Part shown: positions 3,001-6,000 of the stretch, one piece after another | How positions within the stretch are numbered: the first letter of the stretch is position 1 | Layout: every line of letters begins with the position of its first letter | UHGV virus genome: UHGV-2203451 | Direction: 5' to 3' (one strand) | From: a virus | DNA length: 37,884 nt | Made by a program: the position numbers

Positions 3001-6000
3001 CGAATGAATCCATCAAGGAACTGTTCATTATAACTTTTGGCTATCTGATAACATCCAACAGCATCAATGCGTTCGATTGTGAATTGCCAACTATCACCGC
3101 AGTTAAAATTCCATTTCCAGCCGTATTTCTGTGCGAATTCATCATATTCAACATTTGCAGGTTCAGAACAGAAAGATAAAAATCTAAATGTTGGTTTTGG
3201 CCTTAGATGGTTAAGCCCGGCACCTCTTGGGGTATATATGGCATTATCTCCATTCCCACCTTTTGTTTTAACTGTAAGGTGACTTAAACCAAATTCAATA
3301 TCATATTTTGTTGGCGCAGCAAAAACAAAGCCGTCTTTTGGTGATGTGGTATTGTCAAACACAATAACCGTTTCACCCTGCCCATCACCGCATATATTTA
3401 TGGGTGGTATATTAACAGGACCAGTCACATTGTATATTCCTTTTGGCACATATAGTTTTCCGCCCTCTCCGAGAGCATTCGCTGCAGCAATAAATGCTGG
3501 CGTATCATCGATAATATTATCCCCTTTCGCCCCAAAATCTTTAACATTATAAACGTCACGCATCTTATCCTGGAACGTTCTGTATACTGCCCCAGAACCA
3601 TACTGAATAAACCAACCAAAACCACCAACAACTCCGGCAATTGCAGCATCGACATAATTACGCATTGAGCGATTATTTACAGCGTCCTGCTCAAGTGATG
3701 GATCTGCAAGGTTAGAAATTCTGTTTTGCTTTGCATCGTAATATTTTGCAAGCAAAGATGGTTTCATCAATGCACGTCTGAACCACCCAAAACATTGCTG
3801 GATCAGCATCGTCAGGTAGTCAAAGGCATCTTCATGCACTTCGGGAAAAAACTTTCCCTGATTGCGAAGATCTGTCTCCTGTACTACATCAAGCACACGA
3901 TCTATCGTAATTCGCCATCCAGTAGCAAGCGGAGACGGAAGAACCACAGAACCGCCACTATAAGTGCCAGCTCCAGTTACTGTATAACCGGTATCCAGAA
4001 CCAATTCTGTTACGTTCCCGTTCAGGTCAGACACCTGAACAACCAGGTCGGATTTTTTGAAAATGCGGAAAGTATACGGAAACGATGTCGTAACTCCGTT
4101 ACCGGTGTATTCGTTGTGGTCAACTTCGGTTGAGACCGTCATGTTAAATCTCCAGATAGTCGCAGCACCCGTTGCGCCGCATATCTGGTTATTCTATTAC
4201 CTGGAAAACCACATATGGATAGAAAGGCTGTAAATACGAATAGATATTACCTTTCAGGTAATTTGCAAAACGTGCTGGATAGCAAACAAATTATTTGCTA
4301 CTGTATAAATATACAGTTATTGCATGGAGAAGATAAGATGCAGCAGTATCACTATCCACTGGAAGACGGATTTACCGAAAGGATTCACACGCCGGGAGGC
4401 GTCAGGTCACTGGTGGAGGGATCGCACTTGATGAAATTACTCCGGGATCTCGATAAGGATGGATTTAATGTCGATGGCCCACTTGCCGAACTGACTGCAC
4501 TGATTAACTACGTCACCAGCTCACAGATGTCTATGCAGGATCTGCAAACACATCTCGACTATTGTGCCGAACAATTACGAAAACAAACCCGGTAAATTTA
4601 AAGGCCGCAAGAGCGGCCATTAACAGTCGTAAAATTCCGGGTCCCACAAACTTGCATCGCGCGGCATGGATTCTAAATTTTTCAGCCGCAAAATTCTGTC
4701 ACACTCGACAAGAAGTTTTTGTTTTTGTTCGTCAATTTCTACTTTTTTGTGTGCTGGCTCATCCCAGTAATCCAGAAGAAACGCATGTCGCTCAGACGTT
4801 ACAAGATAAATCACATACACATCACTGGTTGGTATTTTTTTATGCTTGTTGGTGGTCTTGTCTTTCTTCCCGGATGCCCAGTTTTTCCAGCATTGTTCCG
4901 TACCGCTCTCACCAAACTTGTCAGTATAGTTTCCGATGTTTACGTGAACGTGGCGTATGTGATATTCCAGCATCTCTTTCGGTGGATCCCGAAACAGAGT
5001 GTCCTTTCCGAAATCCTTATGATGACCGTAGCGCCAGTGATCTATGAACGCGTTTTTGATAGGTATTAGCTCAGGGTCCTTCCCAAAAATTCCAGGGTGA
5101 ACCAACCCCTGGAATTTATTCAGCATCGTCGTAGAGCTCCTGAGCCATATCTTCGGCAGTGCGTGCAAACATCCTGCGCGAGATTGCATGAGATTTCTCG
5201 ACGGACATCTTTGGGACCTCATGCATAACATTTTTGGGAGTTGTGTAATAGCCTATTACAATTTTCACACCTGACTTATGATTAATATCAGCATAATATA
5301 CTTCTTGTTCAGACGTTTCACGACGAACATAATCTGCCAGTTTTCCACATTTAAATTCCCCTCCCTGATGTTTTAAAATCTCCTCAACTGCACTATTTTC
5401 AGTGAAATACCGAATAAGAAATTTCTGTCCAGACTCTTCAGCATGAGGTATAACAGTATTATTGGAAGCCCGAACAATGGCCTTACTCAATATTTCATGG
5501 TCTTTATTTTTTTCTGATTTCCTCAAATGCTGCATTACTGTAGCTCTCTTCGTGTTCACGGGCACCCCCAACTACCTCTAGGGTAAACATTCTATCGAAA
5601 GTATACGCATACTGGCAAAAAAATAGGCAGGTATTTTCTGAAATGGGATCAATCAAACCACATAGGGTTGAAATAACGTGAGTTATGCATTTATTATTAC
5701 CTTTGCGGTAAATTTACATCGCACTCCTCTTGTGCCATAGTAATCGGGCACTGGAAAAATCCAGTGCCGGGATTGGCGTCCCGGATTACTAAAAGGCGCA
5801 TTCACCGCGCAAGCGGTTTTTTTATGCGTATAGCACGGCCACATTCGTATTATGGTGGGCTGTGTGGGGGCACCGAAAGGTGCGCCGGGTCCTTTTAGCC
5901 GGTTACGCCAACCCTGCACAGTTCACCACCAACCGATTGGCGTCGGTAGTGGTGATTAACCAGACTAAAAGGTAACCACTATGACAGCTACAAAAAGCAC

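Follow-up and report, generated by a model that had tools for sequence, protein, structure and literature searches.

A probable immI-type RNA immunity cassette in the leader of the BRO-N antirepressor gene of a phiV10/epsilon15-like phage of Escherichia coli

Control of phage genes by c4 and IsrK-type RNAs is known from several temperate phages. In a source that cites Citron & Schuster 1990, the antisense RNA c4 is described as a repressor of ant in P1 and P7, needed in P1 for full repression; the proposal made in 1990 was that the sites a1/b1 compete with a2/b2 for c4. In the prophage Gifsy-1, both IsrK and the c4-equivalent RNA STnc1160 are abundant in lysogens, and short IsrK acting in trans raises translation of the antirepressor more than 100-fold (PMC4825925). 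Hershko-Shalev et al. (2016, PMC4825925) regarded the SeqA RNA of P4 as structurally homologous to IsrK, and the APSE phages of Hamiltonella carry an isrK-family small RNA (sRNA), a c4-family sRNA and a BRO-N gene, in that order (Rouil et al. 2020, PMC7313666). In this study the leader of the antirepressor gene ant in the virus genome UHGV-2203451 was compared with these systems; the whole stretch of DNA analysed, 37,884 nucleotides (nt) long, is referred to as the window and represents a temperate E. coli phage or prophage of the phiV10/epsilon15-like group. The leader is very probably an immI-type RNA immunity cassette of the kind represented by P1/P7 c4, P4 CI and Gifsy-1 IsrK. In the window this assignment is based on family membership, RNA structures, complementarity, geometry and three-way covariation, while the processing of the RNAs, translational repression, the decoy role of a1/b1 and repressor control of the promoter would follow by analogy with the homologues.

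The regulated gene, ant (5981..6676, plus strand), encodes an antirepressor of 231 amino acids (aa) with a BRO-N domain, matching Pfam Bro-N at 2.3e-21 and PHROG 130 ('anti-repressor Ant') at 3.7e-63. Its 278-nt leader has a minimum free energy (MFE) of -119.5 kcal/mol, compared with -88.5 +/- 5.1 kcal/mol for 200 shuffled sequences, none of which folded as well (z = -6.03). At gathering thresholds, Rfam revealed three matches in the whole window, and two of them lie in this leader. The initial annotation had regarded the leader as structured, with three hairpins, one of them a GNRA-looped terminator followed by seven T, had supposed that this internal terminator marks a separately terminated small RNA, and had considered a c4-like RNA layer over the antirepressor plausible, suggesting a search with C4 covariance models. 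The hairpins can be read from the sequence, and a terminator scan also finds the third of them, the comparison with shuffles confirms the structured nature of the leader, and the terminated block is an IsrK-family sRNA; the covariance-model search was positive, placing a C4-family RNA 25 nt downstream of the hairpin block. The putative antisense regulator of c4 type resides in the element at 5848-5933, which had not been described, and not in the described hairpins. Complementarity of the hairpin loops to the region of the ant ribosome-binding site, for which a check had also been suggested, was not found; these loops are identical to the sequence near that site, being the target copies a1 and b1.

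The IsrK-family RNA, which is at the same time the a1/b1 element, is a full-length match to RF01394 at 5748..5823 on the plus strand (76.7 bits against a gathering score of 50, E = 7e-15). It begins with hairpin 1 (5748-5767, GCACUGG/CCAGUGC), which can be extended by a G-C pair to 5747..5768. Hairpin 2 (5768-5783, CGGG/CCCG) exposes the target copy a1, UUGGCGU, in its loop at 5773-5779; its optional C5767-G5784 pair is incompatible with hairpin 1. The second target copy, b1 (CUAAAAGG, 5789-5796), is followed by the intrinsic terminator, comprising an ACCGC-GCAA-GCGGU hairpin at 5804-5817 and seven T at 5817-5823.

The leader's largest structure is the three-helix fold of the C4-family antisense RNA, an 86-nt full-length match (model positions 1-87) to RF01695 at 5848..5933 on the plus strand with 77.7 bits, a gathering score of 45 and E = 1e-13. 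Alignment with the annotated c4 of P1, which is also 77 nt long (12344-12420 of the P1 record), predicts a mature c4 of 77 nt at 5854-5930, with an ACCA-like 3' tail at 5928-5931; folded as a single sequence it reaches -45.1 kcal/mol. The RNAalifold consensus over 18 phages reproduces a long closing stem enclosing two hairpins and contains compensatory changes in 20 of 44 pairs. Two segments of c4 are unpaired. One, b' (CCUUUUAG, 5891-5898), forms part of the second inner hairpin's loop, and the other, a' (ACGCCAA, 5905-5911), lies in a single-stranded junction. Exact complements of each occur twice, as a1/b1 upstream and a2/b2 downstream of c4, and the order of the a and b elements is compatible with antiparallel pairing. 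The site a2 (UUGGCGU, 5937-5943) is an exact 7-nt complement of a', and b2 (CUAAAAGG, 5965-5972), the complement of b', covers the ant Shine-Dalgarno sequence AAGG at 5969-5972; from the end of b2 it is 8 nt to the ATG at 5981. Between the two targets lies the segment GUGGUGA (5949..5955), whose GGTGGTG columns are nearly invariant among the homologues. It has alternative partners, either UCACCAC in the c4 3' strand (5923-5929) or the sequence before and across the ant start codon; a consensus helix joins alignment columns 216-222 and 249-255. In MFE folds the ant translation-initiation region forms a hairpin.

A distant BLAST search with the leader matched 304 phage records. For comparison, 17 phage loci were fetched and P1 was added, giving 18 phages besides the window; the set includes P1, phiV10, EC.W1-9, TL-2011b, HEMP4, Gifsy-1, APSE-7, several Stx phages, SfV, phiP27, ASU11 and 118970_sal3. 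All 17 fetched loci score above gathering for both isrK and C4. In P1, C4 (68.8 bits) and c4-a1b1 (51.0 bits) are above gathering and isrK, with 35.1 bits, is below it, while P4 scores 74.9 bits for C4 in its CI region and 60.8 bits for isrK in its seqA region. Conservation of the hairpins in related phages, proposed earlier as a check, was observed: hairpin 1 shows compensatory changes in all six of its pairs among the 18 phages, and the terminator hairpin is found in every homologue with differing stem sequences.

The pairing elements covary strongly. Over the window and the 18 phages taken together, a' has no fewer than 8 variants and the b' loop more than 10, and in each phage both target copies follow the phage's own c4. 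Between a' and a2, 97.5% of the alignment cells are standard pairs across the 18 phages, with 5 of the 7 pairs changed on both sides; between a1 and a' the paired fraction is 94.4%, and in neither case did any of 500 shuffles reach the observed covariation score. When the a partners are slid out of register, pairing falls to 24-53%. Duplexes were scored as exact complements and as duplexes restricted to the loops; RNAduplex on full-length RNAs was tried and set aside, as it returned long spurious helices. The c4/a2b2 duplex averages -22.4 kcal/mol for cognate and -13.9 kcal/mol for non-cognate combinations, the cognate one being the best in 16 of 18 phages, and the corresponding values for c4/a1b1 are -21.1 and -12.4 kcal/mol, with the cognate partner best in 18 of 18. 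Shuffled versions of the window's targets paired as well in 9 of 2000 cases for a2b2 and in 1 of 2000 for a1b1. In 19 loci, 5-16 nt (mostly 8) separate the end of b2 from the following start codon. Both kinds of box, a and b, diversify in step with each other, as would be expected of determinants of heteroimmunity.

The gene that follows the cassette differs between phages. It is a BRO-N gene in the window, HEMP4 and APSE-7, an ORF6N gene with or without P22_AR_C in Gifsy-1 and Stx phages, a pRha gene in 118970_sal3 and in the Stx2a phages Stx2_KH16 and Stx2a_JNE12, and icd with a gene for an ANT-domain protein in P1. The RNA module appears, from the sequences compared, to move independently of its cargo gene, and the window provides a further case of the isrK-c4 cassette placed before unrelated antirepressor-type genes. 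Deposited coding sequences (CDS) cross the isrK and C4 matches in 118970_sal3, SfV, phiP27, ASU11 and Stx1_699 (631-1773 in locus L011, 625-1461 in L012, 931-1590 in L014, 928-1590 in L015 and 757-1779 in L016), with the products named 'transcriptional regulator', 'immunity region' or 'antirepressor'. In these five phages the next gene shares its reading frame with a conserved AUG located in the 5' strand of c4. The CDS look over-extended, and their true start is probably the ATG 8 nt past b2; the comparison flags these five calls for annotation.

Two promoter-like sites precede the cassette on the plus strand. The proximal one (5713..5741) combines TTTACA at 5713-5718, a 17-nt spacer and TGcCATAGT with its -10 hexamer at 5736-5741; a consensus scan gave 9 of 12 matches and an extended -10 TG. 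Transcription from it is predicted to start at about 5748, which is the first base of the isrK match. In alignment this site coincides with P1c4/P51b, a promoter annotated in P1, and in Gifsy-1 a TTGACA/TATATT box is found at the equivalent position upstream of isrK. The upstream site (5668..5697) consists of TTGAAA at 5668-5673, an 18-nt spacer and TATTAT at 5692-5697, matching the consensus at 10 of 12 positions, and may possibly be the counterpart of P1 P2c4/P51a. Its -10 hexamer abuts an operator-like palindrome, TTACCtttgcGGTAA (5697-5711), which lies between the two promoter-like sites and overlaps both.

This palindrome belongs to a repeated set. The window holds 14 copies of the pattern TTACC-N5-GGTAA, with at most one mismatch, where 0.85 would be expected, and none of 100 shuffles reached 14; the 15-bp copies begin at 4247, 5572, 5697, 6743, 24038, 27231/27249, 30992/31054, 33000, 33337/33385 and 34097/34159. 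Pairs of copies flank a helix-turn-helix (HTH) gene at 33455..34039 (194 aa, HTH_3/HTH_26 domains). Because of this enrichment and of the pairs around the HTH gene, the palindrome at 5697-5711 is probably the operator of the prophage repressor, paralleling the control of P1 Op51 by C1; it is kept in TL-2011b, HEMP4, EC.W1-9 and phiV10. The 14 palindromes look like a dispersed operator set for this repressor and recall the many C1 operators of P1.

Of the described systems, immI of P1/P7 resembles the window in the order and strand of its elements (Op51, P51a/b, a1 b1, c4, a2 b2) and in having an operator that overlaps tandem promoters. The P1 c4 has the same length of 77 nt, three-helix fold, a' in the junction and b' in a hairpin loop, and in both phages c4 is closely followed by a2, while b2 occupies the Shine-Dalgarno sequence of the gene downstream, which in P1 is icd, ahead of ant1/2. 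The distances are also similar: 7 nt from the predicted mature 3' end of c4 to a2 in the window versus 4 nt from the annotated end in P1, 28 versus 29 nt from a2 to b2, and 8 versus 10 nt from the end of b2 to the start codon. Unlike P1, the window has no icd, and b2 covers the ribosome-binding site of ant itself. The proteins differ as well, since Ant1 of P1 has an ANT/KilAC domain and the window's Ant is an unrelated BRO-N protein; protein comparison found no similarity of Ant to either P1 Ant1 or Gifsy-1 AnrP. The a1/b1 block of the window has a strong terminator and an isrK score of 76.7 bits, compared with 35.1 bits in P1. The window's operator is palindromic and 15 bp long, in contrast to the 17-bp monovalent C1 sites annotated as operators in the P1 record.

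The Gifsy-1 locus isrK - orf45/STnc1160 - anrP (PMC4825925) has a matching arrangement, with isrK and C4 above gathering. Its a' is identical to that of the window (ACGCCAA) and its b elements differ; both loci have the predicted long-range 'structure A', an open reading frame (ORF) starting from the equivalent AUG, and an antirepressor-type gene directly next. The Gifsy-1 downstream protein is, unlike the window's Ant, of ORF6N type and has no similarity to it; orf45 overlaps the anrP start (gap -4), whereas the corresponding ORF of the window ends 21 nt upstream of ant; and the Gifsy-1 locus follows the Q antiterminator gene, while that of the window adjoins a tail-fibre gene. The CI RNA and seqA of P4 match the two RNA families of the window, C4 and isrK, yet the outcome in P4 is premature termination of the replication operon and not control of an antirepressor (PMC4825925). 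The APSE phages share the trio of isrK, c4 and a BRO-N gene, already annotated in their GenBank records together with a' and b', and differ in the a and b sequences, phage type and host.

The immI region of P22 (sar, arc, mnt, ant) is similar in that ant adjoins a tail-fibre or tailspike gene and is restrained by a small RNA. In P22, transcription of sar runs on the opposite strand and crosses the ribosome-binding site of ant; the regulator in the window is, in contrast, encoded upstream on the same strand as ant. The parallel with sar drawn in the initial annotation does not hold: a consensus scan found no minus-strand promoter-like site in 5713-6100, and Rfam gave no significant minus-strand match in the leader or at the start of ant, the nearest being RT-7 at 5568-5749 with an insignificant 14.2 bits (gathering score 116.8).

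The initial annotation had also stated that the leader holds no plausible ORF. This is not fully correct, as an ORF of 35 codons (5852..5959, plus strand) is present. Its start codon is the conserved AUG within the 5' strand of c4, the position of Gifsy-1 orf45, and it spans a2 and stops 6 nt before b2. No recognisable Shine-Dalgarno sequence was found for this ORF. In homologues, the ORF opening at this AUG has 14 to 64 codons or is fused in frame to the next gene; it has 14-15 codons in P1, HEMP4 (14), APSE-7 and PhiR12_2, and in EC.W1-9, which is the nearest relative of full length, it has 28; the middle part is read in different frames in different homologues. Since its length, stop position and internal frame vary between phages, it is not conserved as a protein, and a conserved leader peptide was rejected as an explanation. 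Alignment to the P1 c4 5' end (12342-12344 of the P1 record, L018) places the predicted RNase P cut between U5853 and G5854, inside the AUG at 5852-5854, so maturation of c4 would destroy the start codon of the ORF by splitting it between U and G.

Reportedly, c4 of P1 and P7 is processed by RNase P. By analogy with such systems, transcription of the window's cassette would begin at about 5748, from the promoter adjoining the operator of the prophage repressor, and most transcripts would end at the terminator (5804-5823), giving an IsrK-like RNA of about 76 nt with a1 and b1. In transcripts that read through, c4 would probably be excised as a 77-nt RNA (5854-5930), with RNase P cutting the 5' end as in P1. 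The single-stranded b' (CCUUUUAG) and a' (ACGCCAA) would then pair with b2 (5965-5972) and a2 (5937-5943). Because b2 covers the ant Shine-Dalgarno sequence, it is proposed that Ant would stay untranslated and the prophage repressor would remain active. Competition for c4 would come from the a1/b1 copies, carried either by the terminated IsrK-like RNA or, in cis, by the read-through RNA itself, and when the promoter fires strongly these copies could free the ant ribosome-binding site.

Several observations weigh against this interpretation of the locus as a c4-repressed immunity cassette. The transcription start, the efficiency of termination and the processing are all inferred for the locus. 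With 7 and 8 bp, the a and b helices are short. When the folded RNAs were co-folded, the change in free energy was about zero for both c4:target and IsrK:c4, and the a/b contacts did not appear; this is weak evidence because nearest-neighbour co-folding cannot model loop-loop contacts. The c4-a1b1 family (RF03163), which is above gathering in the homologues Gifsy-1, Stx2 II, phi296 and P1, reaches 41.7 bits at 5735-5787, slightly short of the 46.7 set as its gathering score (E = 5.5e-9 in a permissive local search); the two hairpins and a1 of this motif are present despite the low score. In covariance-model score, fold, target complementarity and, by prediction, the long-range 'structure A', the locus conforms to the C4 and IsrK families; the only score threshold that it misses is that of c4-a1b1. 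In addition, the published mechanism in Gifsy-1 is coupling of orf45 translation to that of the antirepressor, and not the action of c4 at its ribosome-binding site (PMC4825925).

If the locus works as in Gifsy-1, only activation would take place: the read-through RNA would be inactive through pairing in cis, the IsrK-like RNA would open it in trans, c4 would not act as a free repressor, and ribosomes would translate the 35-codon ORF, exposing the ant ribosome-binding site by their passage. For a transcript from 5748, the predicted fold, in which the a1/b1 and a'/b' regions pair in cis, indeed resembles Gifsy-1 'structure A', and it is nearly iso-energetic with the c4 fold (-106.1 versus -105.5 kcal/mol). 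The MFE folds of 5748..5930 and 5748..6000 share the topology of Gifsy-1 +1..+180, the fold of which agrees with the experimentally supported 'structure A', and translation of the ORF from the equivalent conserved AUG would cross a2 and end 6 nt before b2. This route is nevertheless ranked second, as a tentative alternative that is distinctly less probable than c4 repression, because the ORF lacks an evident Shine-Dalgarno sequence, ends 21 nt early, where Gifsy-1 has a stop overlapping the next start (gap -4), and is truncated in EC.W1-9 and HEMP4. The variability of the ORF in length and middle frame between phages also speaks against it, and the covariation of a2/b2 with a'/b' would be unexplained if c4 never pairs with the ant ribosome-binding site. 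Ranked third, and rather unlikely, is regulation as in P4, in which a c4-like RNA would pair with a1/b1 and a2/b2 on nascent transcripts and cause premature termination, at 5804-5823 or through Rho downstream, so that the main effect would be on ant transcription instead of ribosome binding. It would suit the membership of P4 CI RNA and seqA in the same two Rfam families, the intrinsic terminator directly after b1, and an alternative hairpin (GCGC 5796-5799 / GCGC 5807-5810) overlapping b1 and the terminator stem; in P1, translational repression by c4 is also said to lower ant transcription. The alternative hairpin, a candidate anti-terminator, has only 4 bp, however, and in 19 loci b2 falls precisely on the Shine-Dalgarno sequence, which speaks for occlusion of the ribosome as the primary event.

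A role of the 5748-5823 RNA mainly as a trans-acting, Hfq-dependent sRNA for host genes, its position in the ant leader being incidental, is very improbable: the name of the Rfam family ('isrK Hfq binding RNA') and the terminator hairpin with a U-tail at the RNA end, typical of Hfq-binding sRNAs, would fit, but a1 and b1 track the c4 of their own phage in 18 of 18 cases, which is unexpected for a regulator of conserved host targets. Least credible of all is a simple constitutive attenuator, in which the hairpins and terminator just reduce read-through into ant and no RNA-RNA pairing occurs; the intrinsic terminator is present as it supposes, and the C4 match, the duplicated target boxes and the three-way covariation are left unexplained. 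It is also conceivable, though doubtful, that the cassette is a self-contained bistable three-part RNA switch, where the choice of promoter and processing, beyond RNA abundance, would decide whether Ant is made. Since the predicted RNase P cut splits the embedded AUG, maturation of c4 and translation of the leader would be mutually exclusive fates. A 5' extension from the upstream promoter is predicted to mask b1 via a 'third stem', with a probability of the c4 fold in the predicted ensemble of 0.97 versus 0.32, and this stem is strong in the phiV10-like group (z of about -3 to -4). Promoter-dependent folding via the 'third stem' was kept as a speculative reading only, as the effect predicted for the c4 fold is not consistent from phage to phage.

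The cassette is an unannotated copy of well-known RNA control of the c4 plus IsrK type, real but ordinary; it leaves current understanding unchanged and is useful for annotation without being surprising. The particulars of the locus are a c4 aimed directly at the ribosome-binding site of ant without icd, an unrelated cargo gene, a palindromic operator and the lack of annotation in the region. The RNA region is without annotation in the phiV10/epsilon15-like phage group, and this gap is now filled for these phages and their E. coli prophages. The leader sequence is 100% identical in IHE3034, APEC O18 and further E. coli strains, and in the RefSeq E. coli genomes with the identical sequence the BRO-N gene is the sole feature annotated there. 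Matches to the leader were found in 935 of 5426 complete E. coli genomes, for which reason the cassette can be regarded as a common layer in the control of prophage induction.

Some features of the surrounding region were also recorded. Upstream of the leader, two overlapping minus-strand ORFs, 5571..5116 (PHROG 9503) and 5231..4620 (PHROG 1651), diverge from it; neither has a Pfam or NCBIfam match, and the IHE3034 homologue of the latter is named 'type II toxin-antitoxin system YafO family toxin' in RefSeq. Since the pair is missing from phiV10, it looks like an inserted toxin-antitoxin-like moron. The ORF at 5116..5571 was considered as the repressor of the leader and rejected on account of the absence of domain matches and the YafO-family homologue of its partner; it is more likely part of this insert.

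A small protein of about 86 aa is encoded at 4335..4595 on the plus strand, inside the listed ORF 4215..4595, and is homologous to the C-terminal domain of Ant: it matches PHROG 450 at 1.1e-47, and PHROG 450 also matches Ant residues 148-229. In position and size its gene corresponds to phiV10p24 (258 bp), which the phiV10 record describes as similar to epsilon15p19, and an operator palindrome (4247-4261) lies upstream of its likely start. The free-standing copy of the antirepressor domain could modulate Ant. Another palindrome (6743-6757) is situated directly 3' of ant, before a plus-strand ORF at 6817..7449 (210 aa, function unknown, PHROG 1349), and this gene may be under repressor control too. 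Farther along the window, the palindrome at 24038-24052 lies near a plus-strand tRNA gene at 24375-24448 (Rfam tRNA, 73.3 bits).

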